Assembly (NCBI GenBank): GCA_026707545.1
Contig: JAPOWR010000001.1
Span: 1,329,778 to 1,393,777 of the forward strand
Length of the DNA: 64,000 bases
Source of the DNA: Acidobacteriota bacterium
GTDB taxonomy: Bacteria > Acidobacteriota > Thermoanaerobaculia > Multivoradales > Multivoraceae
Direction: 5' to 3'
A model generated the notes under the pieces. It saw only the letters and a list, made by a program, of their open reading frames with translations. It was not told where the DNA came from and searched no databases. How positions within the stretch are numbered: position 1 is the stretch's first letter; each line of letters begins with the position of its first letter. Below, in pieces: positions 2,342 to 47,928 of this stretch. Position numbers and translations under genes: made by a program.

Positions 2342-2375
2342 CCCACCACCGGATTCGACAAGGACGGGAGCGCGC

Positions 2376-3494
<1,119 letters not shown>

Positions 3495-3500
3495 GCGGCC

Positions 3501-4805: not shown

Positions 4806-4855
4806 GGCTCCTCCTCTTCCGCCGAGCGTCTCGGCTACCATGACCTGCGGGATCG

Positions 4856-7422: not shown

Positions 7423-8715
<1,293 letters not shown>

Positions 8716-13079: not shown

Positions 13080-13652
13080 CTACGGGTTCTCGGGTGGCAA
13101 GTTTCGGGGCATCTGTTGCACGATCTGGCCGACCGCCGCCCAGACCAGGATGGCGATCGGCGCTGCCGCCAGTACGGCGGTCACAAACCGGCTCGCCGGT
13201 GTGTTTATCGGCAGTAGCCAGTCGATCGCCGTCGGCGTGAGGAACAGGAGAATGCGCCTGGGCTTCTCGAGTAGCCAGTCGCGCGTGGGACGAAACAGCG
13301 GCAGCACGATCAGCCCCAGAGTGAAGCCGGCGTAGAAACCGAAGCAGCGGTGGCACACGGCCAGGGGGTGGCCTGCCAGATGGAAGCTGCGTTCGGCGAT
13401 CTGGTGGCAGACCGGCGCGAACGCTTCGTAGAGCAGCGCCGCCGCCTGTCCTCCCGAAGCGGCCAGGAACGGCGTGGCGACCACCAATCCGATCACCAGG
13501 CAGCACAGCACGGCCAGCGTTGCGGTCACCGCCAACGTAGCGGGGCTCGCCACGAACGGTGCGGTCCCCCCGATGTCAGAAGCCGCCGCCCCGAGCCGTC
13601 CCACAGGCCCGGCGGCAGATTGGGGTGAAACCCCGAGCCGACGGCGTAGCAT
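13080..13652 (-). CDS. DUF2085-like membrane protein
   Basis: 190 aa. Conserved Cys/His pattern (CHQIAERSF...CHRCFGFY) between TM helices. First gene of the minus-strand trio with the two paralogs. Confidence 0.5.
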   Translation of the reverse strand: MLRRRLGVSPQSAAGPVGRLGAAASDIGGTAPFVASPATLAVTATLAVLCCLVIGLVVATPFLAASGGQAAALLYEAFAPVCHQIAERSFHLAGHPLAVCHRCFGFYAGFTLGLIVLPLFRPTRDWLLEKPRRILLFLTPTAIDWLLPINTPASRFVTAVLAAAPIAILVWAAVGQIVQQMPRNLPPENP

Positions 13653-13732
13653 CGCGGGCTAGTGTAGCGACTGGACTCCGGCGACGGAGGCCGTCCCACC
13701 CGCCGGTATGATCGCGCCGTGAGGAGCGATCG

Positions 13733-15031
13733 TTGAGCGGCTGGAACACGATTCCCGAACTCGGCGACCTGATCGGCCAGGAAGTAAGGCTGCGCGGCTG
13801 GGTTGACGCCCGGCGGTCCAGCGGCAGGATCGGCTTCATTCGCCTGCGGGAATCGGGCGCCACGGTGCAGCTCGTGATCAGCCGAAAGGAGGTGGACGAC
13901 GCCTCCTGGGAGGTGCTCCAGCACGCCGCCCAGGAGTCGACCGTCGCCGCCACCGGCACCGCCGCCGCCGACCCGCGCTCCCCCGGCGGAGTCGAGGTTC
14001 ACGTCTCCTCCCTGGCGCTGGTCCACGGCGCCGATGGCTACCCGATCACGCCGAAGGAACACGGCACCGCGTTCCTGATGGATCATCGCCATCTCTGGCT
14101 GCGCTCCAGCCGCCAGCGGGCGGTGCTGCGGATCCGCAGCGAGGTATGCCAGGCGATCCACGACTTCCACCGTGAACGCGGCTACTACCTCGTCGATTCG
14201 CCGATCCTGACGCCAGCCGCCTGCGAGGGCACGTCGACGCTGTTCGAGACGCCGTACTTCGACCACGGCAATGCCTACCTGAGCCAGTCGGGGCAGCTCT
14301 ATCTCGAACCGGCGGCGGCCGCCCTGGGCAAGGTCTACTGCTTCGGCCCCACCTTCCGGGCCGAGAAGTCGAAGACCCGGCGCCACCTGATGGAGTTCTG
14401 GATGGTCGAGCCGGAAGCCGCCTTTCTCGACTTCGACGGCCTGTGCGAGCTGGCCGAGGACTTCCTCGTCTACCTGGCCGGCCGCGTGCTCGAGAACTGC
14501 GGCGACCCGTTGGCCCTCCTGGAGCGCGACGTTTCGAAGCTCGAAGCCATCCAGAAGCCCTTTCCGCGTCTCCGTTACACGGAAGCGATCGATCTTCTGC
14601 GCCGCCAGGGCTCGGAGATCGAGTTCGGGGAAGACTTCGGCGCTCCCGAGGAAACGTCGATCACCCGGGAGTTCGATCGGCCAGTGATGATCACCCACTA
14701 CCCGACGTCGCTCAAGGCCTTCTACATGGAACCCGATCCGGACGATCCGTCGCTGGCCCTCGCCCTCGACGTGATCGCTCCCGAGGGCTACGGCGAGATC
14801 ATCGGCGGCAGTCAGCGAATCCACGACCACGACCTGCTCCTCGCCCGGCTCAAGGAACACGACCTGCCGCTCGAGGCCTTCCAGTGGTATCTCGACATCC
14901 GCCGCTACGGGACGTTCGAACACAGCGGCTTCGGCATGGGCGTCGAGCGCTTCGTCGCCTGGATGGCGGGCGTCCCCCACCTGCGCGAGACGATTCCCTA
15001 CCCGCGCACGATGGACCGGATCTACCCCTGA
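13733..15031 (+). CDS. asnS: Asparagine--tRNA ligase
   Basis: 432 aa. Class II aaRS motifs FRAEKSKTRRHLMEFWMVEPE and GFGMGVERFVAW. Length and the EFWMxEPE motif favour AsnRS over AspRS. Confidence 0.8.
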   Translation: MSGWNTIPELGDLIGQEVRLRGWVDARRSSGRIGFIRLRESGATVQLVISRKEVDDASWEVLQHAAQESTVAATGTAAADPRSPGGVEVHVSSLALVHGADGYPITPKEHGTAFLMDHRHLWLRSSRQRAVLRIRSEVCQAIHDFHRERGYYLVDSPILTPAACEGTSTLFETPYFDHGNAYLSQSGQLYLEPAAAALGKVYCFGPTFRAEKSKTRRHLMEFWMVEPEAAFLDFDGLCELAEDFLVYLAGRVLENCGDPLALLERDVSKLEAIQKPFPRLRYTEAIDLLRRQGSEIEFGEDFGAPEETSITREFDRPVMITHYPTSLKAFYMEPDPDDPSLALALDVIAPEGYGEIIGGSQRIHDHDLLLARLKEHDLPLEAFQWYLDIRRYGTFEHSGFGMGVERFVAWMAGVPHLRETIPYPRTMDRIYP

Positions 15032-15717
15032 CGACGCTTCGCGATCGACTCGAAGAGCGCCTCGGCTACCGGTTCGAGAACCGCGGCCTGCTCGACCAGG
15101 CCCTGACCCACACCTCCTTCGCCAACGAGCACGGTCTCGGGGAACACAACGAGCGGCTCGAGTTCCTGGGTGACTCTGTGCTCGGCCTGATCGCGGCCGA
15201 CTGCCTCTTCAGGAACCTCCCGGTCGCCCCCGAAGGCGACCTGTCGCGGGTGAAGTCCCACGTCGTGAGCGCCGAAGCCCTGGCGCAGCGGGCGCGGCTC
15301 CTGGAGCTCGGTTCGGCGCTGCGCCTCGGCCGCGGCGAGGAGCGCTCCGGCGGCCGGGACAAGCAATCGCTCCTAGCGTGCGCGCTAGAGGCCGTGATCG
15401 GGGCCGTCTTCCTCGATGGGGGTCTTGAAGCGGTCCGGGACGTGGTCGAGCCGTGGATCGAGGCCGAGGCCATCGAGTCCGCCGACGCCTCCGATGCAAA
15501 GTCCATGCTGCAGGAGCTGCTCCAGGGCCAGGGCCTCGATCCCCCCGTGTACCGGCACGTGGGCCGGGAGGGGCCGGATCACGACCCGGTCTTTCACGTC
15601 GAGTGCTGGATCGACGGCCGGACCGCCGCCAGCGCCCGCGGCCACTCGAAGAAGGCGGCCGAGCGCAACGCCGCCCGAGAGGCGCTGGCCGCGCTCCACG
15701 ACGTCAGCGGCGCTTGA
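15028..15717 (+). CDS. rnc: Ribonuclease III
   Basis: Conserved N-terminus LEERLGYRFENRGLLDQALTHTSF, ERLEFLGDSV catalytic motif, C-terminal dsRBD. The only in-frame ATG/GTG/TTG starts are ~65 codons or more upstream, deep inside asnS. A CTG at 15028 overlaps the asnS stop. Start uncertain. Confidence 0.75.
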   Translation: MTTLRDRLEERLGYRFENRGLLDQALTHTSFANEHGLGEHNERLEFLGDSVLGLIAADCLFRNLPVAPEGDLSRVKSHVVSAEALAQRARLLELGSALRLGRGEERSGGRDKQSLLACALEAVIGAVFLDGGLEAVRDVVEPWIEAEAIESADASDAKSMLQELLQGQGLDPPVYRHVGREGPDHDPVFHVECWIDGRTAASARGHSKKAAERNAAREALAALHDVSGA

Positions 15718-17599
15718 ACCGTCGCTCCAGGTCACGGTCCGTCAGCTCCAGCACCACCGGCCTGCCATGCGGGCAGGTGTACGGGTGGTCGCAGGCGAAG
15801 AGTTCCGCGATCAGGCCCTCCATCTTCTCCGCGGACAGCGCCTGGTGCATCTTGACCGCTGCCCGGCAGGCGCGGCTGGCCGCCAACTGGGTCAGGAGGT
15901 ACTCGGCCAGGGCCTCCTCCTCGCTCGGAAGCTCGTCCCCGGCGGCGACCCGGGTGGCGATCCGCAGCACCAGACTCTCCGCTTCGACGTCGGGCAGCAC
16001 TGCCGGAATCGCCGTGATCGCGGCGCTGCCGCCGGAGAGGCTGCTGACCGAGAAGCCACACCGCTCCAGCCCCGCGGAGCACTCCGCGAGCGCCGCGTGT
16101 TCGGCCGCCGAGAGTTCCAGAACCCGTGGCACGAGGAGGGTCTGGCTGGCGGACTGCTGCTCGCCAAGACTGCGGCGAAACCGCTCGTACAGGATGCGCT
16201 CGTGGGCCACGTGCTGGTCCACGACCAGCAGCGATTCCGGCCCCTCGAGCAGGACCATCGTGCCCTTGTACTGCCCGATCAGCCGGAGCGAGTCCCGGCC
16301 GCGGCCCGACAGCGGCACCGGAGTGGAGGGCTGAGGGCTGTAGGCGACCTCGGCCAGCTTCCCCGCCGGGGCGGCCTGCGCACCGCCATACCGGCTGGCG
16401 AGTTTCTCGGCCCAGTCGGGAGCTTCCGGTGCCGGATCGCTCTCCTCCCGATCACCTCCGCGGTCCCAGGCCATCGCGACTTCCGTTTCCCGGACCTCGC
16501 CGGCGCCGGTCCAGCCCGGAGGCGCCATCGGGCCATCGGGCTCGCGCAGTGGCGCCGGCTCTACGCCCTTCGCCGCCTCGAGTCCGGCCCGTAGCGCGTT
16601 GCCGACACGTCCGAGCACCGCCGCGTCGCGGAAGCGGACTTCCGCCTTCTGGGGATGGACGTTGACGTCGACCGACTCGGGCGGTAAATCGAGGAACAGG
16701 AACATCGCCGGCGCCGGGCCGCCCTTCAGCAAGTCCTTCACGGCCTTGTAGTAGATCCCGAGCACCGCCCGATCGCGCAGCAGGCGCCCGTTGACGAAGA
16801 CGAACTGGCGCCTACCTCTTGCGGTTTCGCTGTCGCCGATGAAGCCATCGATTCCCTGCCGCCTCCTCGGCTCCGGCAGCGGTGTGAGGTGGTGCACAAG
16901 GTCCGCACCGAAGAGTTGACCGATCCGCTCCAGGCGACCGGCCGAGTCGGTCTCGGTGGCCTGGACCCGCAGCACTTCCCGTCGCGGAGCACCGCTGATC
17001 AGGCTGTGCCCCATGACGAACGTCACATCTGGCCGAGCCAGGGCATAACCCTGCACTACCATCGTCGCCTGCCTCAACTCGGTCGGCGCCCGCTTCAGGA
17101 ACTGTTTGCGCGCCGGCACGTTATAGAAGAGCGACTCCACCGTCACCGTCGTGCCGCGGGGATGAGCCACCGGTTCGTTGATCGTGACCTCGCCCCCCTC
17201 GATGCGGATCCGATGGCCGTCGCCGGCGTTGCGGGCAGTCTGCAGTTCGCATCTCGAAACAGCGGCGATCGAAGACAGCGCCTCGCCCCGGAAACCCAGA
17301 GTCCCGACGTGGAGAAGATCCTCGAAGGAGGCGATCTTGCTCGTCGCATGGCGTTCGAGTGCCAGAAGCACGTCCCCTGCGGCGATTCCGGCGCCGTCGT
17401 CCCCGACCGCGATCCGGTCGTTGCCGCCATTCACCAGGTCGATCTCGATCCGGGTCGCTCCGGCGTCGAGCGCGTTCTCGACCAGTTCCTTGACCACCGA
17501 CGACGGACGCTCGACGACCTCGCCGGCCGCGATCTTGGAGATCAGGGTGTCGGCAAGCCGCCGCAGCGGACGGTCCGCCGGCGTGCGGTCCGGCCCCAT
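15704..17599 (-). CDS. mutL: DNA mismatch repair protein MutL
   Basis: 631 aa. GHKL ATPase N-terminus (IAAGEVVERPSSVVKELVENALDAGA). C-terminal dimerisation domain. Confidence 0.9.
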   Translation of the reverse strand: MGPDRTPADRPLRRLADTLISKIAAGEVVERPSSVVKELVENALDAGATRIEIDLVNGGNDRIAVGDDGAGIAAGDVLLALERHATSKIASFEDLLHVGTLGFRGEALSSIAAVSRCELQTARNAGDGHRIRIEGGEVTINEPVAHPRGTTVTVESLFYNVPARKQFLKRAPTELRQATMVVQGYALARPDVTFVMGHSLISGAPRREVLRVQATETDSAGRLERIGQLFGADLVHHLTPLPEPRRRQGIDGFIGDSETARGRRQFVFVNGRLLRDRAVLGIYYKAVKDLLKGGPAPAMFLFLDLPPESVDVNVHPQKAEVRFRDAAVLGRVGNALRAGLEAAKGVEPAPLREPDGPMAPPGWTGAGEVRETEVAMAWDRGGDREESDPAPEAPDWAEKLASRYGGAQAAPAGKLAEVAYSPQPSTPVPLSGRGRDSLRLIGQYKGTMVLLEGPESLLVVDQHVAHERILYERFRRSLGEQQSASQTLLVPRVLELSAAEHAALAECSAGLERCGFSVSSLSGGSAAITAIPAVLPDVEAESLVLRIATRVAAGDELPSEEEALAEYLLTQLAASRACRAAVKMHQALSAEKMEGLIAELFACDHPYTCPHGRPVVLELTDRDLERRFKRR

Positions 17600-20348: not shown

Positions 20349-21272
20349 CTAAGAGTAGGCGGCGAAGAGCTCTTCGAACGCCTTGATCTGGTTGCCCGCC
20401 GCCGACGACGGCACCAGGATCGGGGTACGGATGCCGGCATCCAACCACCGTTCGACGCCGTCTCGGACCTCCGCCGCGCTGCCGAACAGCGTGCAGTCGG
20501 CAAGCCAGCGATCGGTAAGCAGGCCCGGGATGCGGTCCATCTCGCCCCGCTCCACGGCGCGCTCCACGGCTTCCATCTCCTCGACGTAGCCGGCCGCCTT
20601 CCAGTAGTTGCGGTAGTTCGGCAGCAGGGCGTAGCGGGACAGCGTCTTCCGGTTGCGCGCCGCCGCCAGTCCCCGGTCGTCCGAGATCACGGTCGGGATC
20701 ATGTTGCCTACGAAGAAGTCCGGATCGGTCGCCTTCTCCCCCGCCGCCGCCAGGGAATGGCTCATGCGGGAACGGGCGCCGTTCGCGAACACCATGCCGT
20801 CACCGATCTCGGCTGCGGTGGCGATCATCCGGTCGCGCAGCGTGGCGAGGACGATCGGCGGAAGCTCGCCGGCGCCCCGCACGGCTTTGAGCTCGTCGAC
20901 GAAGGCCCGGATGTCGCCCAGCGGCTTGCCAACGGTGACGCCCAGCCGCTTGTGAGCCGGCGCGTGGCTGACGCCCACGCCGAACCAGAAGCGGCCCCGG
21001 GACACCTCGTGGATGAACGACGCCGTGTACGCGAACTCCGTCACGTGACGGGTGTAGATGTTGACGATCGACGTGCCGAACGGAATCCGTTCCGTACGGA
21101 GCGCGAGCGCCTCGCACAACGCCAGCCCGTCCCCCATGCTCGGGCAGTAGATGCCGCTGAACCCGCGGCGCTCGATCTCCGCCGCCAGGTCGAGGGTCAG
21201 CCGGCGACGCCCGGGAACAGCGGCGAGCGAGATCGCCGGGAGGCCGTTCCGCGCTTCGGAGGTCGTCGTCAT
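20349..21272 (-). CDS. LLM class (luciferase-like) flavin/F420-dependent oxidoreductase
   Basis: 307 aa. TIM-barrel LLM family similarity. Confidence 0.75.
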   Translation of the reverse strand: MTTTSEARNGLPAISLAAVPGRRRLTLDLAAEIERRGFSGIYCPSMGDGLALCEALALRTERIPFGTSIVNIYTRHVTEFAYTASFIHEVSRGRFWFGVGVSHAPAHKRLGVTVGKPLGDIRAFVDELKAVRGAGELPPIVLATLRDRMIATAAEIGDGMVFANGARSRMSHSLAAAGEKATDPDFFVGNMIPTVISDDRGLAAARNRKTLSRYALLPNYRNYWKAAGYVEEMEAVERAVERGEMDRIPGLLTDRWLADCTLFGSAAEVRDGVERWLDAGIRTPILVPSSAAGNQIKAFEELFAAYS

Positions 21273-21377: not shown

Positions 21378-21590
21378 CTACGCCGCCACGTCGATCTGGG
21401 CCGCCGTCGTCTGGGGCGGGGGCACCGGGTCGCCGTCGCGCCGCAGGCCTTCGAGATGGAACTCGATGGCTTCGCGCATCAGCTCGATGACTTCGTCTCG
21501 CGTGTCCGCCGCCGCAACGCAGCCCGGGAGATCGGGAGCGTAGGCCGCATAGTTGTTGGGCGCCTTCTCGATGACGATCGTGTACTTCAC
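21378..21590 (-). CDS. hicB: Type II toxin-antitoxin system HicB-family antitoxin
   Basis: 70 aa MKYTIVIEKAPNNYAAYAPDLPGCVAAADTRDEVIELMREAIEFHLEG, typical UPF0150/HicB. Starts with GTG. Confidence 0.7.
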   Translation of the reverse strand: MKYTIVIEKAPNNYAAYAPDLPGCVAAADTRDEVIELMREAIEFHLEGLRRDGDPVPPPQTTAAQIDVAA

Positions 21591-21591
21591 A

Positions 21592-21783
21592 GGGTTCCTT
21601 GAGGCCCGCCTGTTTGAGGATGCTGTTCCAGGTACCCGGCGGCAAGTCCTTGCTCAGTTTACCAGCGATGGTCACCTTGCCAGGCTTCGTCGGATGTCGG
21701 TACTGCCGGTGGCTGCCCTTCGTTGCGACGAGACGCCAGCCATCGCGCTGAACGGTCCGAATCGCTTCGCGCACGTCGGGCAT
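21592..21783 (-). CDS. hicA: HicA-family mRNA interferase toxin (conserved ~64-codon core; no in-frame stop, the frame reads on to 20800)
   Basis: MPDVREAIRTVQRDGWRLVATKGSHRQYRHPTKPGKVTIAGKLSKDLPPGTWNSILKQAGL matches the HicA/YcfA family. The frame continues through hicB and into the LLM gene without a stop. Confidence 0.6.
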
Positions 21784-24822: not shown

Positions 24823-25527
24823 ATGCCAGACAACGAGTCGACCAGCTCCTCCCTTCCCACGCTCGCCATGCTCGGCGCCACCGGCGACCTCGGCGGCGGT
24901 CTGGCCCGACGATGGGCGGCCGCCGGCTACACGATCGTCATCGGCTCCCGGTCGCGCGAAAAGGGCGCCGGTTCGGCTGAGGACGTGAACGAACAGCTTC
25001 GCGGGCTGGGCCTTCCAGCGACGGTCCGCGGCACGGACAACCTGACTGCGGCCCGAGAGGGTGACATCGTCGTGCTGACCGTGCCCTACGCCTTCCAGCG
25101 GGCGACGCTGGAGGGAGTGCGCGAAACGATCCAGGGGAAGATCCTCGTCGACTGCACGGTGCCGCTCGTACCGCCGAAGGTTGCCCGCGTGCAGCTCCCC
25201 GACGAAGGCTGCGCCGCGAACATCGCGCAACAGGCCGTCGGCCCCGGCGTGCGCGTGGTCTCCGCGTTGCAGAACGTCGGCGCTGCCCATCTGCGCGAGG
25301 AGGGCGCGGTCCATTGTGACGTGCTCGTTGCGGGCGACGATCCCTCGGCCCGCGCCGAGGTCATCGAACTGATCGAGGCGCTCGGCATGCGAGGCTGGCA
25401 TGCCGGACCGCTCGACAACGCGGCCGCCGCCGAGGCGCTGACCTCCGTCCTGATCCAGTTGAACCGCAAGTACGGCATCGCCGGCGCGGGCATCCGGATC
25501 ACGGGCGAACCGACCCGGACGCCCTGA
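24823..25527 (+). CDS. fno: NADPH-dependent F420 reductase
   Basis: 234 aa. LAMLGATGDLGGGLARRWAAAGYTIVIGSR Rossmann motif. Matches the Fno/NpdG family. Confidence 0.8.
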   Translation: MPDNESTSSSLPTLAMLGATGDLGGGLARRWAAAGYTIVIGSRSREKGAGSAEDVNEQLRGLGLPATVRGTDNLTAAREGDIVVLTVPYAFQRATLEGVRETIQGKILVDCTVPLVPPKVARVQLPDEGCAANIAQQAVGPGVRVVSALQNVGAAHLREEGAVHCDVLVAGDDPSARAEVIELIEALGMRGWHAGPLDNAAAAEALTSVLIQLNRKYGIAGAGIRITGEPTRTP

Positions 25528-25618
25528 AGACGCTCGGCAAGCGCTCGGCGAAGGCGCGACACTCGCCTGACGGAGGCGGATAGCCTTCGACCTTAGAGCG
25601 CCGGCGCCTTCACACACC

Positions 25619-26380
25619 ATGCTGAACATCAAGTCCGTCCCGGGCCTGCCCGAAGTCCAACCAGGGGACGACCTGGCGGTACTGATCGCCGAGGCCATGC
25701 GGCAGGCCCGGATGAAGCTGCGAGCCGGCGACGTCCTCGTCCTCGCGCAGAAGATCGTGTCCAAGGCGGAGGGACGGACCGTCGACCTCGCGAGGGTGGA
25801 ACCACGTCCCGAGGCCGTCCGGCTGGCGGCGAAGTGCGACAAGGACCCACGCCTGGTCGAACTGGTGCTCCGGGATTCGACGGCGGTGCTGCGCACCGCG
25901 CCCGGAGTCATCATCGTCGAGCACCGGCTCGGTCTCGTGCTGGCGAACGCCGGAATCGACCAGTCGAACCTGCGTCCCGGCGACGACCACGGGCACGCCC
26001 TGCTCCTGCCGGAAGATCCGGACGCCTCGGCGGCGGCCCTGCGCGAAACCCTGGCGGCGCACTTCGGAGTCGAGCGCCTCGGCGTGATCGTCAACGACAG
26101 CGTCGGTCGCGCCTGGCGGCTGGGCACCGTCGGGCTCGCCATCGGTGTCGCCGGAATGACCGCGCTCTGGGACCTGCGGGGTGATCGCGACCTGTTCGGC
26201 CGTGAACTCCTGGTCTCGGAAACCGGGATCGCCGACCAGGTCGCGAGCGCCGCCCAGATCGTCCAGGGCGAGGGTGACGAGGGCACTCCGGTCGTGCGCG
26301 TTCGCGGCCTCGGGCGGCTTGGACCTGCTCAGACCGCCCGCGACCTGCTGAGACCGCGCGAGCAGGACCTGTTCCGGTGA
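25619..26380 (+). CDS. cofE: Coenzyme F420-0:L-glutamate ligase (single-domain CofE)
   Basis: 253 aa. CofE signature regions (VLAQKIVSKAEGR, VLANAGIDQSN). Confidence 0.85.
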   Translation: MLNIKSVPGLPEVQPGDDLAVLIAEAMRQARMKLRAGDVLVLAQKIVSKAEGRTVDLARVEPRPEAVRLAAKCDKDPRLVELVLRDSTAVLRTAPGVIIVEHRLGLVLANAGIDQSNLRPGDDHGHALLLPEDPDASAAALRETLAAHFGVERLGVIVNDSVGRAWRLGTVGLAIGVAGMTALWDLRGDRDLFGRELLVSETGIADQVASAAQIVQGEGDEGTPVVRVRGLGRLGPAQTARDLLRPREQDLFR

Positions 26381-26393
26381 AGGCGGGTCTCTG

Positions 26394-27407
26394 ATGACGG
26401 AAGGCTCCCCAAGGCACTGCGTGGCGCTTTCCGGCGGTGTCGGCGGCGCCAAGCTGGCGCTCGGGCTGTCGCGTGTCCTGCCCGGGGACGCGCTGACCGT
26501 CGTCTGCAACACCGCGGACGACTTCGACCACCTGGGGCTCCGGATCTGCCCGGATCTGGACACGGTGATCTACACGCTGGCCGGCATCTCGAACCGCGTC
26601 ACCGGCTGGGGTCAGGCCCACGAGACCTGGTCCTTCCTGGAGGCGCTCTCCCACCTCGGCGGCGAGACCTGGTTCCGGCTCGGCGACCGCGATCTAGCGA
26701 CCCATGTGGAGCGAACCCGACGCCTCCGCGCCGGCGAGACCCTGACCGGGGTGACGGCAGCCCTCTGCCGGGCGCTCGGTATCGCCGCCCGCGTGCTGCC
26801 CATGAGCGACGACCCGGTGCGCACGGTCGTGCTGACGGAGACCGGCGAACTCAGCTTCCAGCACTACTTCGTTCGCGATGCCTGCACCCCGACCGTCTCC
26901 GGCTTTCGCTTCGACGGGATCGACGCGGCCCGGCCGTCCCCCGCCTTTCTGGCGGCGCTGGAGGACGACGCGACCGCGACGATCCTCGTCTGTCCCTCGA
27001 ACCCCTTCGTCAGCGTCGATCCCGTGCTGGCGCTAGACGGGGTCGAGGCGGCCCTGCGGCGGACGGGAGTTCCTGTCGTTGCGGTCTCCCCCATTGTCGG
27101 CGGCACGGCGATCAAGGGGCCCGCAGCCAAGATGATGGCGGAACTCGGGATGCCGGTCACCGCGGTCGGGGTCGCCCGGCACTACCGGGAACGCGACCTG
27201 CTCGACGGCTTCGTGATCGACGACGCCGATGCCGGCCAGACCACCGAGATCGAGGATCTCGGCCTTCCCACCCTGGTGACCGGCACGGTGATGGAGACGC
27301 TGGCCGACCGGGAACGCCTGGCCCGGGAGACGATCGACTTCGCCCGCGGCCTCGACCACGGGCGGGGCGACGTCGCGGAAGCCGTGTCGCCGGAACGGTC
27401 CGCGTGA
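26394..27407 (+). CDS. cofD: 2-phospho-L-lactate transferase (LPPG:FO transferase)
   Basis: 337 aa. CofD/FbiA family (ALSGGVGGAKLALGL, SNPFVSVDPVLAL). Confidence 0.85.
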   Translation: MTEGSPRHCVALSGGVGGAKLALGLSRVLPGDALTVVCNTADDFDHLGLRICPDLDTVIYTLAGISNRVTGWGQAHETWSFLEALSHLGGETWFRLGDRDLATHVERTRRLRAGETLTGVTAALCRALGIAARVLPMSDDPVRTVVLTETGELSFQHYFVRDACTPTVSGFRFDGIDAARPSPAFLAALEDDATATILVCPSNPFVSVDPVLALDGVEAALRRTGVPVVAVSPIVGGTAIKGPAAKMMAELGMPVTAVGVARHYRERDLLDGFVIDDADAGQTTEIEDLGLPTLVTGTVMETLADRERLARETIDFARGLDHGRGDVAEAVSPERSA

Positions 27408-28102
27408 CTGCCGGCGGCCTCTGGGCGGTCCTGCCGGTCAAGGCCTGGTCCGAGGCCAAGCGGCGGCTGTCGCCGGTCCTGAGCGCGCCGGAGCGGGAGG
27501 AGTTGGCGAGATCGATGCTCGACGACGTGCTCGACGCCATCGAGGGCGCGCCCGCCGTCACCGGCGCGCTCGGGGTAACCGCGGACGACGTCGCCGCAAC
27601 GTACCTGGAAGAGGCGGGCTGCGAGGTTCTGGCAGAGCCCAGGCGCGGCCTGAACCGGGCGCTCGGCACGGCCGCGGACGAGCTCGCGCGCCGTGGCGCG
27701 TCGACGATGCTCGTATTGCCGATCGACCTGCCCCTGGTCGTTTCGGCCGACCTGGAACAGCTCTGCGCCCGACACCTCGGGGCACGAGCGGGCACCGGCG
27801 GCGAGCCGGCGCCGCCTGCCGCGGTGACCGTCGCGCCGGACCGGTTCCGCTCCGGCACGAACGCGCTCGTCTGTTCGCCGCCGGGATGTATCCCGTTTCG
27901 CTTCGGCGACGGCAGCTTCCATGCCCATCTGCGCGAAGCGGAACGGGTGAAGGCCGCTCGTTCGAGCGTCGCGCTGCCGAATCTCGGCCTGGATGTCGAC
28001 CATCCGGACGACCTGGCGGAGCTGTTGCGACTCGACCGCTCCAGTCGAAGCGTCCGTTTCCTGCGTCGTACCGGCGTGCCGGAGCGGCTGGGTGCCCTCT
28101 GA
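27404..28102 (+). CDS. cofC: 2-phospho-L-lactate (or PEP/3PG) guanylyltransferase
   Basis: 232 aa, GTG start in GTGA overlap with the cofD stop. CofC/FbiD nucleotidyltransferase family (WAVLPVKAWSEAKRRL). Confidence 0.8.
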   Translation: MTAGGLWAVLPVKAWSEAKRRLSPVLSAPEREELARSMLDDVLDAIEGAPAVTGALGVTADDVAATYLEEAGCEVLAEPRRGLNRALGTAADELARRGASTMLVLPIDLPLVVSADLEQLCARHLGARAGTGGEPAPPAAVTVAPDRFRSGTNALVCSPPGCIPFRFGDGSFHAHLREAERVKAARSSVALPNLGLDVDHPDDLAELLRLDRSSRSVRFLRRTGVPERLGAL

Positions 28103-28163
28103 ACCGGGACTGATACCGTTCGCTATCCGCCGCGAGCTGGTTCCCTCCCCCGCCGTCTCCGCC

Positions 28164-30683
28164 ATGTCCCCTGCGCTCAGCACGTTTCTCGAACGCCGCC
28201 CGACACCGGTGGAAGCCCGCGCGCTCGCCGCTGTGGACGCGGGCAGCGGCCTCGATGAACTGATCGAGGTCGCCGGGGAACTTCGCGACCGCGGTCACGG
28301 CGACCTCGTCTCGTACTCACGCAAGGTCTTCCTGCCGCTCACCCACCTCTGCCGCGACATCTGCCACTACTGTGTCTTCGCCCGACCACCGAAGAAGGGC
28401 GAGGCGGCGTACATGCCGCTGGACAACGTCCTGAGCCAGGCGCGCCTGGCCGCGGCGGCGGGCTGCAAGGAGGCGCTGTTCACCCTTGGCGACAAGCCGG
28501 AGTTGCGGTACAAGGCCGCCCGCGAGGGTCTCGCCGAACTCGGACACGACACGACGCTTTCCTACTTGCGCGAGGCGGCGGAACGGGTGCTGATCGAGAC
28601 CGGACTCCTGCCCCACCTGAACCCGGGCCTGATGACCGCCGCGGACATCGAGCACCTTCGACCCGTGGCGCCCTCCATGGGCATCATGCTGGAGAGCGTC
28701 TCGACGCGGCTGCACGAGAAGGGTCAGGCCCACTACGGCTGTCCGGACAAGGTACCCGAACGGCGGCTCGAAACGCTGCGCCTCGCCGGCGAAGCGCGGG
28801 TGCCCTTCACCTCCGGCATCCTGATCGGAATCGGCGAGACCCGGGAAGAGCGAATCGACGCCCTGCTCGCGCTGCGCGAGCTGCACGGGGAGTATGGGCA
28901 CATCCAGGAAGTCATCATCCAGAACTTCCGCGCCAAGCCCGAGACGCGGATGGCGGACGCGCCCGAACCCACGCTAGAGGATCTACTGTGGACGATCGCC
29001 TCGGCGCGCCTCGTGCTCGGCCCGCGGATGCACATTCAGGCGCCGCCCAACCTGAGTCCTGGCGTCCTGCCGCGGCTCGTCGCCGCCGGCATCGACGACT
29101 GGGGCGGCGTGTCGCCCGTCACGCCCGACTTCGTCAATCCGGAAGCCCCCTGGCCGCACCTGGAGCGGCTCGCCGAAGAGACGGCCGCCGCCGGCAAGAC
29201 GCTGATCGAGCGGCTCACCGTCTACCCCGAGTGGGCGCTCGACGGGGGAACCTGGCTCGACGACGGTCGCGGCCGGAGCCGCGAGATCCGCCGCCTGGGC
29301 GGCGTACGCACCGCGGTGCTCCAGCGGATCGACGCCACCGGGTTGCCGCGCACCGACGACTGGTCGCCGGGTGAGCAGACGCCGCCGCCCCAGGACGTCC
29401 TCGACACCGTCACCGCGGCGCCTTCCCGCAACGGCAACGGCCACGCCCTCGCCTCGCCGCTGGTCCGGACGATTCTCGACCGGGCCCAGGCCGGCGAGGA
29501 GCTCAACGAGGACCAGATCACCACCCTGTTCGAGGCCCGCGGCGCCGATTTTTCCGCCGTCTGTGCAGCCGCCGACGCGGTCCGCCGCGAAGTCAACGGC
29601 GACACGGTCACCTACGTCGTCAACCGGAACATCAACTACACGAACGTCTGCTACTTCAAGTGCCAGTTCTGCGCTTTCTCCAAGGGCAAGCTGAGCGAGA
29701 ACCTGCGAGGCAAGCCGTACGACCTGGAACTCGAAGAGGTCATGCGCCGCACCGTGGAGGCCTGGCAGCGGGGTGCCACGGAAGTTTGCATGCAGGGCGG
29801 CATCCATCCCGACTACACGGGTGAGACCTATCTCGGAATCTGCCGCGCGGTGAAGGAAGCCGTGCCCGAGATCCACGTCCACGCCTTCTCGCCGCTCGAG
29901 GTCTGGCAGGGCGCCGCCACCCTCGACATCCCGCTCAAGGACTACCTGTTGCTGCTCAAGGAGGCTGGCCTGGGCACGCTGCCCGGCACCGCGGCCGAGA
30001 TCCTCGACGACGAGGTCCGCGCGGTCATCTGCCCTGACAAGCTGAACACCGACCAGTGGCTCGAGGTCATGGAAACGGCGCACGGCGTCGGCTACCGGAC
30101 GACGGCCACGATCATGTACGGCCACGTCGACGGTCCCCGCAACTGGGCCCGCCACCTGCTCCGTCTGCGTGACCTCCAGAAGCGCACACGCGGCTTCACC
30201 GAGTTCGTGCCGCTGCCCTTCGTCCACATGGAGGCGCCGCTCTACCTCAAGGGCCGCGCCCGCAAGGGGCCAACCTTCCGCGAGGCGGTACTCACGCATG
30301 CGGTCGCACGGCTCGCCCTCCATCCCTGGTTCGAGAACGTCCAGGCCTCCTGGGTCAAGATGGGCCCGGAAGGCGTGGCGGCCTGCCTCAACGCCGGAGT
30401 GAACGACCTCGGCGGCACGCTGATGAACGAGAGCATCACTCGCGCCGCCGGCGCCGAGCACGGCCAGGAACTCCCGCCGTCCGAAATGGAGTCGCTCATC
30501 CGCGAGCTTGGCCGCGTCCCGAAGCAGCGGACGACCGCCTACGGCACGCCGCCGCACGAACGCGTCGAGGCGTCATTCCAGGCCGCGGAGCTGGCCGCCG
30601 TGCTGAACACGCCGGCCCACCGCTACGAGCGCACCGGTCCCTTGCAGCTGGTGCGCCCGGGGCTGGAAGCGGACGGCAGCTAG
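28164..30683 (+). CDS. fbiC: FO synthase, bifunctional CofG+CofH (FbiC-type); alternative GTG start at 28092
   Basis: Two radical-SAM domains with CxxxCxxC motifs (CRDICHYCVF and CYFKCQFCAF). About 840-860 aa. The ORF as tracked starts at 27993, inside cofC. Confidence 0.85.
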   Translation: MSPALSTFLERRPTPVEARALAAVDAGSGLDELIEVAGELRDRGHGDLVSYSRKVFLPLTHLCRDICHYCVFARPPKKGEAAYMPLDNVLSQARLAAAAGCKEALFTLGDKPELRYKAAREGLAELGHDTTLSYLREAAERVLIETGLLPHLNPGLMTAADIEHLRPVAPSMGIMLESVSTRLHEKGQAHYGCPDKVPERRLETLRLAGEARVPFTSGILIGIGETREERIDALLALRELHGEYGHIQEVIIQNFRAKPETRMADAPEPTLEDLLWTIASARLVLGPRMHIQAPPNLSPGVLPRLVAAGIDDWGGVSPVTPDFVNPEAPWPHLERLAEETAAAGKTLIERLTVYPEWALDGGTWLDDGRGRSREIRRLGGVRTAVLQRIDATGLPRTDDWSPGEQTPPPQDVLDTVTAAPSRNGNGHALASPLVRTILDRAQAGEELNEDQITTLFEARGADFSAVCAAADAVRREVNGDTVTYVVNRNINYTNVCYFKCQFCAFSKGKLSENLRGKPYDLELEEVMRRTVEAWQRGATEVCMQGGIHPDYTGETYLGICRAVKEAVPEIHVHAFSPLEVWQGAATLDIPLKDYLLLLKEAGLGTLPGTAAEILDDEVRAVICPDKLNTDQWLEVMETAHGVGYRTTATIMYGHVDGPRNWARHLLRLRDLQKRTRGFTEFVPLPFVHMEAPLYLKGRARKGPTFREAVLTHAVARLALHPWFENVQASWVKMGPEGVAACLNAGVNDLGGTLMNESITRAAGAEHGQELPPSEMESLIRELGRVPKQRTTAYGTPPHERVEASFQAAELAAVLNTPAHRYERTGPLQLVRPGLEADGS

Positions 30684-31720
30684 AGCACGGCCTCCGCGAT
30701 CGCGTCCAACGCCTCCGGCTGCTGACAGCCGAGCAGCAACGAGGCGACCTGACCCCTGCCGCCGGCTTCCTTCCAGGCCGCCAGCCGGTCAATGATCCGC
30801 TCCTTCGGCCCGACGAGCGCGACGTCGTCGACCAGGGCGTCCGGAACGGCGCCGATCGCCTCGCTCCGCTTGCCGCCGAGGAAGTTGTCCTGGATCGCGC
30901 GCGCCTCGTCCGGATAGCCGAGACGCTTCGCGTAGTCGTTGTAGAAGTTCTTGTCGCGCGCGCCCATGCCGCCGATGTAGAGGGCCATGCTCATCTTCAC
31001 CGGGGTGCGGCACTGCTCGACGTCGTCGCCCATGACGACGGTGACGAAGGGCATGACCTTGAAGTCGTCGAGGCTCTTGCCGTTGCCGGCCCTGGCGAAG
31101 CCGCGGTCGAGAGCGCCCTCGAGCAGGTCGAAGCGCTCCGGGTTCATCCAGATCGGGAACACGCCGTCCGCGACCTCCGCGCTGCAGGCGAGGCCGTTCG
31201 GGCTGATCGAGGCGGTGTAGATGGGGATCGAGTCGTCCGCCGCCAGGATGCTCTTCAGGGGCTTGCCAAGGCCCGTGCCGTCCTCGCCGCGATAGGGCAA
31301 CTGGTAGTGGAAGCCCTCGTGGGTGACCGGCTCCTCCCGGGCGAAGACCTTGCGCATGATCTCGATGTACTCCTTCGTGCGGGTCAGCGGCCGGCCATAG
31401 GCCACGCCGTGCCAGCCCTCGATCACCTGCGGACCCGACGGCCCCAGACCCACCAGGAAACGGCCGCCCGAGAGCTGGTTCAGCGTCATCGCGGTCATCG
31501 CGGTCATCGCCGGACTCCGCGCCGGCATCTGCATGATCGCCGTGCCGACCTTGATCTTCTCGGTCTGGGCCAGGGTCCAGGCCGCTGTCGACACCGCGTC
31601 CGAGCCGTAGGCCTCTGCCGTCCACACCGACGTGAAGCCGGCGCTCTCGGCCCGTCGGATGCGATCGATGTCGATGTTGATCTGGCTTCCGAAGGCGCCG
31701 GCAAGCAGTCCGAGTTCCAT
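30680..31720 (-). CDS. LLM class F420-dependent oxidoreductase
   Basis: 346 aa. Similar to F420-dependent G6PD / methylene-H4MPT-reductase-like LLM proteins. Stop overlaps the fbiC stop (convergent). Confidence 0.75.
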   Translation of the reverse strand: MELGLLAGAFGSQINIDIDRIRRAESAGFTSVWTAEAYGSDAVSTAAWTLAQTEKIKVGTAIMQMPARSPAMTAMTAMTLNQLSGGRFLVGLGPSGPQVIEGWHGVAYGRPLTRTKEYIEIMRKVFAREEPVTHEGFHYQLPYRGEDGTGLGKPLKSILAADDSIPIYTASISPNGLACSAEVADGVFPIWMNPERFDLLEGALDRGFARAGNGKSLDDFKVMPFVTVVMGDDVEQCRTPVKMSMALYIGGMGARDKNFYNDYAKRLGYPDEARAIQDNFLGGKRSEAIGAVPDALVDDVALVGPKERIIDRLAAWKEAGGRGQVASLLLGCQQPEALDAIAEAVL

Positions 31721-31813: not shown

Positions 31814-32629
31814 ATGACGGAGGCCAACGAGCGCCCCGACCCGGGCAGTCCACGACGTCCACCCAGAACGCGCAGCCAGGTGCTCTGGCCGCTCGCCTTC
31901 GTCACCCTGATCCTGGGCATGGTCGTGGTCATCGTGGTCGGATACGTGATCATCCGGCTGACCCAGGTGCCCGGCGACATGGTCGAAAGCGGCCGGGAAC
32001 TTGGCCGCGCCGCGGTGGAGAGCGTGGAGCGCATCGCGCGGGCGTTCCGGACCGGCAGCGTCCAGACGTCGTTCGTGAGCTACGCCACAGAGGTTTCAGG
32101 CAGCGCCTTTCTTCAGTTCGCAACCCTCGATCAGACCGAAGTGCTGGAGCGCACGGACTCGGCCAGCCTCCTCTGGGGCCGGCTCAGGCTCCCTGACGTG
32201 GTCGTCGAGGCGCGCGTCCCGGTCCGCTACACGTACTACCTAGACCTCGAGGACAACTGGCAACTGACCCTCGACGGCAAGACGGTCACCGTCCTGGCAC
32301 CTGGCGTTCGTGCGAACCGGCCTGCCGTCGACGCCTCGGCGATCGAGTACCGTGTCCAGGGGGACTCCATCCTGCGCGACGAGGAAGCGGTGCTCGAGCA
32401 GCTCCGACTCCGCATTACGGACCAGTTGGCCGCTCGCGCGGGCGAGAACATCGCCCTGGTGCGTGAACTGGGACGGCGCAGGACGGCCGATTTCGTACGC
32501 ACATTCCTGCTCGCCCAGTTCGGCGAGGACGTCGAGGACTACCGGATCGAGGTCCACTTTCGGGACGAGGTCGACCTGGAATCGGCCGTCGATCCGGGGC
32601 CTCCGGTCACCGAGGAACCGCGGCTTTGA
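31814..32629 (+). CDS. Hypothetical membrane-anchored protein (DUF4230-like)
   Basis: 271 aa. One N-terminal TM helix (LWPLAFVTLILGMVVVIVVGYVII), then a soluble domain. No recognisable catalytic motifs. Confidence 0.4.
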   Translation: MTEANERPDPGSPRRPPRTRSQVLWPLAFVTLILGMVVVIVVGYVIIRLTQVPGDMVESGRELGRAAVESVERIARAFRTGSVQTSFVSYATEVSGSAFLQFATLDQTEVLERTDSASLLWGRLRLPDVVVEARVPVRYTYYLDLEDNWQLTLDGKTVTVLAPGVRANRPAVDASAIEYRVQGDSILRDEEAVLEQLRLRITDQLAARAGENIALVRELGRRRTADFVRTFLLAQFGEDVEDYRIEVHFRDEVDLESAVDPGPPVTEEPRL

Positions 32630-33933
32630 CCGACCGGCTGGCGCGGAGGCGCCAGCGACTCCGGGCACGCCAGGCGGACCGCTTCGCGCGCATGGCGGAC
32701 CAGGTCTACGTCCACAATCCCTTCTACCGCGCGAAGTGGCGGGCCGCGGGCTTCGACTCGCCGCCGACTCTGGACGATCTCGCCGATCTCCCCTTCACCA
32801 CGAAGGACGAGCTCGCGGCCGACCAGGAAGCGAACGCACCCTGGGGCAGCAATCTGACGTTTCCCCTGGACGCTTACGTCCGCGTTCACCGCACGTCGGG
32901 CACCACCGGCCGTCCGCTGCGCTGGCTCGATACGCCGGCGAGCTGGCAGTGGTTCCTGGACTGCTGGCTCGCGGTCTATGAAGGCGCCGGCGTCACCCCT
33001 GCGGACAGGGTCTTCGCCGCCTTCGGTTTCGGCCCCTTCATCGGTTTCTGGACCGCCTTCGAGGCCGCGCAGCAGCTCGGTTGTCTGGTGCAACCGGGCG
33101 GCCACCTCTCCACCGAGCAGCGGCTTCAGATGATGCAGGACGACAGCAGCACAGTGCTGCTGTCGACCCCCACCTATGCGCTCCGGATGCTCGAGTCCGC
33201 CCGGCGGCTCGGCATCGACCTCGCCCGCGGCGCCGTCGAGCGAACGATCCACGCGGGGGAACCCGGCGCCGGCGTGCCGGCGGTCAAGCAGCAACTCGCG
33301 GCCGGGTTCGGCGCCGACGTCTTCGATCACGCCGGCGCGACGGAGGTGGGCGCCTGGGGCATCCCCTGCGGCGTCGGCGAGCGTCTTCACGTCCTGGAGG
33401 ACGAGTTCATCGTCGAGTGGATCGACCGGGAAACCGGGCGTGTGCGGCAACCGATCGAGGCGGCCGCGGCCGAAGCCGGCGGCGATGACCTGGGTGAACT
33501 CGTGCTGACGAACCTGGGGCGGATCGGCAGTCCGGTCATTCGCTACCGAACCGGCGACGTTGCGCGGCTGTGCGCCGCCGGTTGCTCCTCCGGCAGGCCG
33601 ACGGTCTACCTGGATGGCGGCGTGGTCGCCCGCGCGGACGACATGTTCATCGTCCGCGGCGTGAACGTCTATCCGAGCGCCGTCGACGCGCTCATCCGGG
33701 AGGCGGGCGGCGTCGCGGAGTACCGCGCGACGGTGCGCCGTCGCTCCCGGATGGCCGAGATCGAGGTGGAGATCGAGCCCGAGTCCGGCCGGGACGTCGC
33801 CACCCTCCGGAACCGCGTCCAGGACCTGTTCGAGGAACGCCTCAGCCTGCGTGTGCCGGTCCGGATCGCCGGCTCCGGCGCCCTGCCGCGCTTCGAACTG
33901 AAGGCCGACCGGTTCAGGTTCAAGGAACCGTAG
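32626..33933 (+). CDS. Phenylacetate--CoA ligase family protein (PaaK-like / F390 synthetase-like adenylating enzyme)
   Basis: 435 aa. TSGTTGRP P-loop of adenylate-forming enzymes, PaaK-type C-terminus. TTG start overlapping the upstream stop. Confidence 0.8.
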   Translation: MTDRLARRRQRLRARQADRFARMADQVYVHNPFYRAKWRAAGFDSPPTLDDLADLPFTTKDELAADQEANAPWGSNLTFPLDAYVRVHRTSGTTGRPLRWLDTPASWQWFLDCWLAVYEGAGVTPADRVFAAFGFGPFIGFWTAFEAAQQLGCLVQPGGHLSTEQRLQMMQDDSSTVLLSTPTYALRMLESARRLGIDLARGAVERTIHAGEPGAGVPAVKQQLAAGFGADVFDHAGATEVGAWGIPCGVGERLHVLEDEFIVEWIDRETGRVRQPIEAAAAEAGGDDLGELVLTNLGRIGSPVIRYRTGDVARLCAAGCSSGRPTVYLDGGVVARADDMFIVRGVNVYPSAVDALIREAGGVAEYRATVRRRSRMAEIEVEIEPESGRDVATLRNRVQDLFEERLSLRVPVRIAGSGALPRFELKADRFRFKEP

Positions 33934-43722: not shown

Positions 43723-45129
43723 ATGGGCACGCACCGTTTCAGGCGGGGATTGAGCCTGCCCATCTCGGGCGCTCCGGAGCAGACGGTGGAGGACGCCGCG
43801 GCTCCCGGTACCGTGGCGATCAGCGCCGCCGACTACCCGGGTATGAAGCCGGCGATGCACGTGGCACCGGGCGATGCGGTGAGGCGCGGGCAGCTCCTGT
43901 TCGAGGATCGCAAGCAGCCCGGCGTGCGCTTCACCTCCCCCGCCGCGGGCACGGTGACCGCCGTGAACCGGGGCGCGAAGCGGGCCCTGATCTCGGTCGT
44001 CGTGCGGGTGGACGCCTCCGACCGGGCCAGCGCCGGCGCCCAGGCCGACTTCGCGGGCTACACGGGCCGCCACCCCAGCGCGCTCAGCCGCGAGGAGGTC
44101 GTGGCACTGCTGGTCGAGTCCGGCGACTGGACCGCCCTGCGGGCCCGTCCCTTCGGACGCACCGCGGCTCCCGGATCGACGCCGAAGTCGATCTTCGTGA
44201 CCGCGATGAGCAGCGAGCCCTTCGCTCCTGCCACCGACATGATCGCCGGCGGACGGGCCGGCGACCTGGAACGGGGCCTCGCCGCGCTGGCGCGGCTGAC
44301 GGACGGACCGGTGTACCTCTGCCGCGCACCCGGCACGCTCGCCGGCATCGAGACCAGCGGTTCGTTACGCGTCGAGGAGTTCAGGGGACCCCACCCGGCC
44401 GGCGCCGCGGGGCTGCACATTCACACCCTGGACCCGGTGGACCGCAACAAGCTGGTGTGGCAGATCGGGCTGCAGGACACGCTGGCGATCGGCCGCCTGT
44501 TCGCCACGGGTGAACCCGACGTCCAGCGCATCATTGCTCTGGGCGGTCCACCGGTGCAGAGGCCCAGGCTGCTGCGCACCCGGCTCGGCGCCGCGCTCGC
44601 CGACGTGACGAGGGGCGAGATCGGTACCGGTGCGGAAGCCGTCCCCGACGGTACCGTGCGGGTGATCACCGGCTCGCCGCTCAGCGGTCGCACGGCGATG
44701 GGCAAGGAGATGCCGGCCGATCTCCACGGCTACCTCGGCCGCTTTCACGACACCGTATCGGTGCTCGAGGACGACCACGGCCGCCACTTCCTGGGCTGGC
44801 TCAACCCCGGTTTCGGCGCCTTCTCCCGCGCCCGCGCCTTCGCTTCCTCGCTGCTGCCGCGCCGGTCGTTCGCGATGACCACGACCACGCACGGCTCGCC
44901 GCGCGCCATCGTGCCCATCGGCCTCTACGAGAGCGTCTTTCCCTGGGACCTGCAGCCGACCTTCCTGCTCAAGTCCCTGGTCGCCGGGGACATTGAGCGG
45001 GCCGAGGAACTCGGCTGCCTGGAACTGCTGGAGGAGGACCTGGCGCTCTGCACGTTCGTCTGCCCGGGCAAGACGGAGTATGGGCCGTACCTCCGCGACG
45101 CGCTCGAACTGATCGAGAAGGAAGGCTAG
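43723..45129 (+). CDS. nqrA: Na+-translocating NADH:quinone reductase subunit A
   Basis: 468 aa. N-terminus RRGLSLPISGAPEQ matches NqrA. First gene of the nqr operon. Confidence 0.9.
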   Translation: MGTHRFRRGLSLPISGAPEQTVEDAAAPGTVAISAADYPGMKPAMHVAPGDAVRRGQLLFEDRKQPGVRFTSPAAGTVTAVNRGAKRALISVVVRVDASDRASAGAQADFAGYTGRHPSALSREEVVALLVESGDWTALRARPFGRTAAPGSTPKSIFVTAMSSEPFAPATDMIAGGRAGDLERGLAALARLTDGPVYLCRAPGTLAGIETSGSLRVEEFRGPHPAGAAGLHIHTLDPVDRNKLVWQIGLQDTLAIGRLFATGEPDVQRIIALGGPPVQRPRLLRTRLGAALADVTRGEIGTGAEAVPDGTVRVITGSPLSGRTAMGKEMPADLHGYLGRFHDTVSVLEDDHGRHFLGWLNPGFGAFSRARAFASSLLPRRSFAMTTTTHGSPRAIVPIGLYESVFPWDLQPTFLLKSLVAGDIERAEELGCLELLEEDLALCTFVCPGKTEYGPYLRDALELIEKEG

Positions 45130-45135
45130 GGGCGA

Positions 45136-46395: not shown

Positions 46396-46421
46396 GCTCC
46401 ACTCGACCGGCGGAGTTCACC

Positions 46422-47923: not shown

Positions 47924-47928
47924 GGACG

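Follow-up and report, generated by a model that had tools for sequence, protein, structure and literature searches.

Paracoccus denitrificans and Oligotropha carboxidovorans are experimentally confirmed Gram-negative producers of coenzyme F420 (Ney et al. 2017, as reported in PMC8498797), and the 2021 review that counts Alpha- and Betaproteobacteria as confirmed producers also lists Acidobacteria among the phyla encoding F420 biosynthesis (PMC8498797). Here we analyzed a 64,000-nt stretch (hereafter the window) of contig JAPOWR010000001.1 (assembly GCA_026707545.1, positions 1,329,778 to 1,393,777 of the forward strand), which comes from a metagenome-assembled genome (MAG) of an uncultured Thermoanaerobaculia bacterium, Candidatus Multivoraceae, of the Acidobacteriota. 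Five genes, fno, cofE, cofD, cofC, and fbiC, were found arranged head to tail on the plus strand at 24823-30683, and they very probably constitute a genuine, intact F420 biosynthesis cluster of Gram-negative layout. The window was compared with 89 loci, including 36 from Acidobacteriota, with up to 10 kb on either side, 11 from Chloroflexi, and others from Proteobacteria. The proteobacterial loci (L047-L088) contained the same gene set, i.e., fno, a standalone cofE, cofD, cofC, and a fused fbiC, and approximately 20 of them, from Gamma-, Alpha-, and Betaproteobacteria, also had the same gene order as the window. The locus is therefore described here as a known Gram-negative cluster type in an additional lineage, and not as a new system.

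Gene content and conservation of the cluster

Genes were delimited by open reading frame (ORF) listing combined with a third-position G+C filter. The G+C content of the window was about 68% throughout, and a single clear gene occupied each interval between 24.8 and 31.7 kb. Families were called by the curated equivalog cut-offs of NCBIfam, with Pfam as a second check and matches to solved structures in addition. The cluster genes and the adjoining oxidoreductase gene were as follows.

24823..25527, plus strand: fno (npdG), F420H2:NADP+ oxidoreductase, 234 aa (TIGR01915, Pfam F420_oxidored)
25619..26380, plus strand: cofE, F420-0:L-glutamate ligase, standalone, 253 aa (TIGR01916, PF01996)
26394..27407, plus strand: cofD, phospho-acid transferase onto FO, 337 aa (TIGR01819)
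27404..28102, plus strand: cofC, guanylyltransferase activating a C3 phospho-acid, 232 aa (TIGR03552)
28164..30683, plus strand: fbiC (fused cofG-cofH), FO synthase, about 839 aa (NF006687)
30680..31720, minus strand: LLM-class F420-dependent oxidoreductase of the Rv3520c family, 346 aa (TIGR03559)

Fno scored 194.7 bits against the TIGR01915 cut-off of 149.8 and also matched the Pfam F420_oxidored domain; its best solved structure was the Thermobifida fusca Fno (5N2I, E 4.6e-38), and 1JAX matched as well. CofE reached 273.6 bits (TIGR01916 cut-off, 180.65) and spanned positions 3-244 of the 244 in the profile, its best solved structures being archaeal CofE proteins (2G9I, 7ULD, and 2PHN). PF01996 was its sole Pfam domain, and the NCBIfam and Pfam scans found neither a nitroreductase domain nor PF00881 in its 253 residues. 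Against NF009810, the profile of the FbiB fusion, CofE attained 216.2 bits, below the cut-off of 304, and aligned with positions 13-243 of 449 only. The original prediction that CofE is a bare 253-aa ligase devoid of a C-terminal nitroreductase was thus confirmed by the full-length CofE profile match and the single domain. CofD scored 307.1 bits (TIGR01819 cut-off, 257.45) over positions 2-301 of 301. FbiC scored 1147.8 bits against the NF006687 cut-off of 1018, its CofG and CofH halves (478.5 and 573.4 bits) each exceeded their own cut-offs, and two CxxxCxxC radical-SAM motifs, CRDICHYC and CYFKCQFC, were present. CofC scored 149.5 bits against TIGR03552 (cut-off, 105) and 92.3 bits against PF01983. 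The E-values of the five genes ranged from 1e-44 down to 0, so chance plays no role in these assignments. A complete fno-cofE-cofD-cofC-fbiC cluster had been proposed here, with failure of the cof genes at the thresholds of profile hidden Markov models (HMMs) named as the result that would speak against it; all five genes lay on the plus strand at the coordinates predicted, all exceeded their curated NCBIfam cut-offs, and Pfam agreed.

The gene identities being established in this way, the chemistry can be proposed from the families to which the products belong. FbiC would make the deazaflavin core FO, CofC would activate a three-carbon phospho-acid with GTP, CofD would transfer the activated phospho-acid to FO, and the standalone CofE would add the gamma-glutamyl tail. 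Fno would then exchange hydride between F420 and NADPH, and the adjoining Rv3520c-family LLM protein may be one consumer or reducer of F420. The cluster is complete, comprising the four core enzymes plus Fno, and has been conserved throughout an entire family of uncultured Thermoanaerobaculia.

As to gene junctions, fno and cofE were separated by 91 nt and cofE and cofD by 13 nt, and the GTG start of cofC overlapped the cofD stop as GTGA at 27404-27407. The cofC-fbiC junction depended on the fbiC start: GTG 28092, which would give an FbiC of 863 aa, creates an 11-nt overlap, and ATG 28164 leaves a 61-nt gap. On identical contigs, gene callers used either GTG 28092 or an ATG near 28164. Because similarity to most orthologues began only at about residues 20-25 counted from 28092, ATG 28164 with its 61-nt spacer is probably the start. 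A start at 27993 was rejected, since both the gene callers and orthologue similarity pointed to 28092 or 28164. Of the proposed "co-directional, translationally coupled array," co-directionality therefore held throughout, whereas coupling is clear at the cofD/cofC junction only and was not borne out at the others. Furthermore, one relative, L006, whose CofC is 62-63% identical, carried fno on the other strand, so that its membership in the operon is not obligatory. Scans for Rfam families, tRNAs, and promoters or terminators in and around the cluster gave nothing useful.

A CofE identical to that of the window occurs on metagenomic contigs and in assembly GCA_026707375.1. A scan of genomes in which each species was represented once yielded a copy with 99% identity in "Acidobacteria bacterium COS1_bin_13" and copies with 61-83% identity in 35 further genomes labeled Thermoanaerobaculia, Candidatus Multivorans or Multivoraceae, Holophagales, and Acidobacteria; NCBI places Candidatus Multivorans in the class Thermoanaerobaculia of the Acidobacteriota. 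Because the cluster was kept in 36 species-level Acidobacteriota genomes at 70-97% identity per protein, it is under selection. The whole neighborhood was syntenic in these loci, with genes for a CoA-transferase, GST, and TerC preceding fno-cofE-cofD-cofC-fbiC and, after fbiC or an intervening methyltransferase gene, those for the LLM protein, a membrane-anchored protein, a PaaK-like ligase, and a TRAP transporter. Judging from the names of isolates and samples, the lineage may originate from sponges or other marine invertebrates; a literature search found no paper on F420 in sponge Acidobacteriota and none on "Candidatus Multivorans."

In neighbor-joining trees of concatenated CofE, CofD, and CofC (about 750 columns), the Acidobacteriota formed one clade (50/50 bootstraps), which grouped with the Proteobacteria, without a settled position relative to them, and the Chloroflexi split off (50/50 bootstraps). 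A proteobacterial-type cluster in Acidobacteriota is most simply explained by lateral transfer. The combination of Na+-NQR and F420 had been regarded as not the textbook context; the host does combine the two, but the context is less exceptional than had been suggested, as the same gene order occurs in many Proteobacteria and Acidobacteria had already been listed (PMC8498797).

The phospho-acid donor and the reduction step

CofC residues were mapped by HMMER alignment to the sequence of the crystal structure 7P97, and the resulting numbering reproduced every published residue. The catalytic residues D108, D197, D199, S171, T152, N153, K13, and K19 were conserved and corresponded to D116, D191, D193, S165, T147, N148, K20, and K26 of MycB3-CofC. 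All elements of the active site known from 6BWH and 7P97, i.e., three Mg2+-binding Asp, the carboxylate-binding Ser, Thr/Asn, and Lys, were thus present, and these residues were invariant or nearly so among homologues. At the specificity positions, L83, L87, S150, and G168 aligned with M91, C95, H145, and S162 of 7P97. Leu and Gly here match those of the phosphoenolpyruvate (PEP)-using FbiD of Mycobacterium tuberculosis (L92 and G163), and G168 was retained in 118 of 120 homologues.

These positions bear on whether the organism would make 3PG-F420 as Mycetohabitans does, CofC activating 3-phospho-D-glycerate (3-PG) so that a reductase is not needed. In keeping with that route, the best-scoring solved structure for CofC was the Mycetohabitans 3-PG guanylyltransferase itself (7P97, E 8.8e-22), CofE is standalone, and no reductase gene is linked. 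However, S162 has been found decisive among the residues governing 3-PG use by the Mycetohabitans CofC (Hasan et al. 2022; PMC8764529): of its mutants, S162T alone kept most 3-PG activity, and all others shifted preference to 2-phospho-L-lactate (2-PL) and PEP. M91 and C95 modulate the pocket, M91L and C95L lowered 3-PG use, and His145 together with the Ser allowed the M. smegmatis FbiD to be engineered for 3-PG use (PMC8764529). The window CofC lacked this signature (Ser/Thr at S162, plus M91 and C95), carrying Gly in place of Ser162, Leu in place of both Met91 and Cys95, and Ser in place of His145. Because L83, L87, and G168 replace M91, C95, and S162, 3PG-F420 is unlikely, and the phospho-acid would be either 2-PL or PEP; as a full account of the locus, we hold the Mycetohabitans-type route to be highly improbable. 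The donor had originally been left open among 2-PL, PEP, and 3-PG; this stands for 2-PL versus PEP, and it fails for 3-PG, against which the aligned residues L83, L87, S150, and G168 argue.

As donor, PEP is slightly favored, tentatively, with dehydro-F420-0 being reduced by an enzyme encoded outside the window. In support of PEP, an FbiE-like reductase gene lay between cofE and cofD in 10 of the 11 Chloroflexi loci, and one proteobacterial cluster of the same layout, that of the betaproteobacterium Pusillimonas caeni (L071), carried an FbiE gene directly after fbiC. The FbiE proteins recovered from the comparative loci were about 200 aa long and had a nitroreductase signature. Their best NCBIfam match was FbiB's C-terminal domain, at 117-135 bits and below the cut-off of 249.55; homologues in databases carried PF00881, and some were named "FbiB-like" by JGI. 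When the window and the 89 loci were searched by tblastn, FbiE matches outside Chloroflexi were limited to L071. A profile built from the Chloroflexi and Pusillimonas sequences was also searched against a protein collection; it matched 7996 of 8000 scored candidates and was thus saturated, and the 120 matches listed were all Chloroflexi-type or unnamed. In Pusillimonas caeni, the FbiE-like gene (13247-13963) overlaps the end of fbiC, and the preceding fno-cofE-cofD-cofC-fbiC order is that of the window; this cultured bacterium could be a convenient model in which to study the PEP route of a Gram-negative cluster.

Several observations weigh against the preference for PEP. By tblastn, seven Chloroflexi queries gave no FbiE match in the window (best E 0.4), in any of the 36 Acidobacteriota loci, or among the proteobacterial loci other than L071 (best E 0.19-0.4 overall), and Pfam and NCBIfam scans found no nitroreductase domain in any ORF of the window. 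A reductase encoded as a split-off gene, raised originally as a counter-case, was likewise absent from the window and from up to 10 kb on either side of the cluster in 36 related genomes, although 64 kb says little about a genome of about 4-5 Mb, a size judged from related chromosomes. Moreover, 2-PL and PEP cannot be told apart from the CofC sequence. In vitro, the CofC enzymes of Paracoccus and Oligotropha used 2-PL best (PMC8764529), and the window CofD was marginally closer to the Methanosarcina mazei CofD (3C3D, 209 bits) than to the M. smegmatis FbiA (6UVX, 185.5 bits).

Most of these observations would be accommodated by the route proposed for archaea, in which a putative kinase would make 2-PL for CofC and CofD, which install it directly. 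Since no reduction is needed, this route would explain why the cluster has no accompanying reductase gene, and it agrees with the standalone CofE. We consider it a serious, if doubtful, possibility. The CofD score difference is small and may reflect phylogeny only, and the in vitro preference for 2-PL may be an artifact of the noncognate M. jannaschii CofD used (PMC8764529). CofC assays cannot tell which of the two donors serves in vivo, as CofD also filters the intermediate (PMC8764529), and the FbiA structure paper names no CofD determinants for enolpyruvyl-diphosphoguanosine (EPPG) versus lactyl-diphosphoguanosine (LPPG) (PMC7253369). Furthermore, 2-PL is thought not to be abundant in most organisms, i.e., outside methanogens (PMC7253369). 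For the lactate kinase (CofB), no sequence has been identified in any organism (PMC8498797 and PMC6450877), in agreement with the earlier statement that it is generally unassigned, and our literature search found no identification after 2021. Clustering of 4064 flanking ORFs revealed no kinase family conserved beside the cluster, and no accessory family across phyla except the LLM family.

PEP might also be used without any subsequent reduction, so that dehydro-F420 is the final cofactor. No reductase gene was found in or near the cluster, and the redox properties of dehydro-F420 and F420 have been reported to be identical (PMC7253369), both of which would fit. Nevertheless, dehydro-F420 has been reported to be less stable (PMC8498797 and PMC8764529), and the review states that F420 is what the Gram-negative bacteria examined to date produce (PMC8498797). 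The absence of a reductase from 64 kb also carries little weight for a genome of several megabases. We regard dehydro-F420 as an unlikely end product.

The missing dehydro-F420-0 reductase was reportedly called "CofX" by Bashiri et al. in 2019. It is very unlikely, in our estimate, that this lineage, in common with most Proteobacteria sharing its layout, has no FbiE-type nitroreductase anywhere and still makes saturated F420 from PEP by means of a "CofX" of a different enzyme kind. The best local candidate would be the Rv3520c-family LLM protein, whose gene adjoins fbiC in nearly all 36 Acidobacteriota genomes and reappears close to the cluster in several Proteobacteria.

Proposed F420 users and neighboring genes

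Two LLM-class oxidoreductases and a PPOX-class protein had been suggested as nearby users of F420H2, and the suggestion held for one of the three. The LLM protein encoded at 30680-31720 scored 386.3 bits against the F420-specific TIGR03559 cut-off of 335, and its best solved structures were all F420-dependent Mer enzymes. Its gene converges with fbiC, with which it shares a 4-nt overlap (30680-30683). Orthologues of 87-98% identity lay downstream of fbiC in nearly all of the 36 Acidobacteriota loci, and others of 51-70% identity lay near the cluster in six further loci. In contrast, the LLM protein at 20349-21272 and the PPOX protein at 11553-12056 stayed below the F420-specific cut-offs, with 86.3 bits at best versus 219.8 (TIGR03620) and 64.8 bits versus 79.05 (TIGR03618), respectively, and only the general Pfam domain passed in each case. 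An orthology of the PPOX gene at 11553 with the PPOX genes of Chloroflexi clusters was considered and rejected, its sole match being 29% identical and confined to one locus. Among the comparative loci, five from Chloroflexi (L065, L068, L078, L084, and L089) encoded a small PPOX-like protein between cofE and fbiE, and that of L078 scored 104.9 bits versus the TIGR03618 cut-off of 79. In L008, a small PPOX/FDOR-class gene (7643-8023) was located within the F420 cluster and overlapped the cofC start by 4 nt.

Downstream of the LLM gene, two plus-strand genes overlapped by 4 nt. The first (31814-32629) encodes a protein of 271 aa that has a membrane anchor at its N terminus and no Pfam, NCBIfam, or PDB match; the second (32626-33933) encodes a PaaK/F390-synthetase-like adenylate-forming ligase that scored below all subfamily cut-offs. 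Both neighbored the F420-dependent LLM gene in the whole lineage but not in any other phylum. Between fbiC and the LLM gene, 23 of the 36 Acidobacteriota loci carried a gene for an S-adenosylmethionine (SAM)-dependent methyltransferase, which was absent from the window; in the near-identical strain L002 (GCA_026707375.1), it encodes 229 aa at 15105-15794. In seven to eight gammaproteobacterial clusters, fno was flanked by genes for another SAM methyltransferase and for a CMP/dCMP-type deaminase. In three gammaproteobacterial MAGs (L051, L073, and L079), a gene for a nonribosomal peptide synthetase (NRPS) of about 2021 aa (around 1-6200, minus strand) lay immediately upstream of the F420 cluster, which may point to F420 being connected with secondary metabolism in those bacteria.

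About 13 kb downstream of the cluster, an nqrA-F operon occupied 43723-49760 and was followed by apbE; all six subunits scored above cut-off, and the predicted presence of Na+-NQR was therefore verified. The profile scans supported the core of the original prediction, namely that an organism bearing Na+-NQR encodes an F420 cluster containing Fno and a standalone CofE. The nqr genes are ordinary neighbors, and nothing links them functionally to the F420 cluster. Twenty kilobases from the cof genes, a plus-strand gene (51498-53729) encodes a 743-aa fusion with no demonstrated link to them. Its N-terminal part resembles 2-phosphoglycerate kinase (NF008994, 244.8 bits, below the cut-off of 603), and its C-terminal part is an archaeal-type cofactor-independent phosphoglycerate mutase (TIGR00306, 329.6 versus 320 bits). 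On paper, the fusion would turn 3-PG into 2,3-bisphosphoglycerate, and its architecture is unusual for a bacterium. Upstream, a minus-strand HicB-like antitoxin gene (21378-21653) lay between the LLM gene at 20349-21272 and the CoA-transferase gene. This is a small spot that varies between strains: the HicA partner was among the genes called in L003, was not called in L001, and an additional Mrr_N gene is present in L002.

Comparison with known F420 systems

With this locus, F420 production can be predicted for an entire family of uncultured marine Thermoanaerobaculia, and this lineage adds 36 natural CofC/CofD pairs that are accompanied by a standalone CofE but by no linked reductase. Field-wide questions apply here too, namely the source of 2-PL ("CofB") and the enzyme that reduces dehydro-F420 outside Actinobacteria and Chloroflexi ("CofX"). 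The donor question is general to the field and no peculiarity of this locus, which gives no easier test than the cultured Proteobacteria.

Compared with the mycobacterial fbiA/fbiB/fbiC/fbiD system, the window has a fused FbiC as well, and its CofC shares the specificity Leu and Gly of M. tuberculosis FbiD. However, FbiB of mycobacteria joins CofE to a nitroreductase in one protein and carries out the reduction of dehydro-F420-0 (PMC8498797), whereas the window CofE has a single domain, and the window CofD scored lower against the mycobacterial FbiA than against archaeal CofD. In the archaeal cofC/D/E/G/H system, CofE is likewise a single-domain protein, and archaeal structures were the best matches of both CofD and CofE; in archaea, CofG and CofH are distinct proteins, and the genes as a rule do not form a single array (PMC6450877), whereas the window has a fused FbiC and clustered genes. 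The 3PG-F420 pathway of Mycetohabitans (Paraburkholderia) rhizoxinica also has a standalone CofE and needs no reductase, and its CofC is the nearest solved structure by score, but its 3-PG signature of Met91/Cys95/Ser162 reads Leu/Leu/Gly in the window.

The clusters of Chloroflexi and Thermomicrobia also comprise a standalone CofE, Fno, CofD, and CofC (Braga et al. 2020, as summarized in PMC8498797), and the Chloroflexi CofD proteins were 46-59% identical to that of the window. Unlike the window, which has neither gene, Chloroflexi clusters carried an FbiE-like nitroreductase gene, often with a TIGR03618 PPOX gene, between cofE and cofD, and fbiC was not adjacent in the Chloroflexi loci compared. 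The closest resemblance in gene set and order was to the Gram-negative clusters. Relative to the window proteins, those of the proteobacterial loci were 46-62% identical in CofE and CofD, 57-65% in FbiC, and 32-47% in CofC, and FbiE was usually not linked, as in the window. What differs is the host, an acidobacteriotal member of the class Thermoanaerobaculia, and the lineage-specific flanks, with CoA-transferase, GST, and TerC genes upstream and LLM, membrane protein, and PaaK-like ligase genes downstream.

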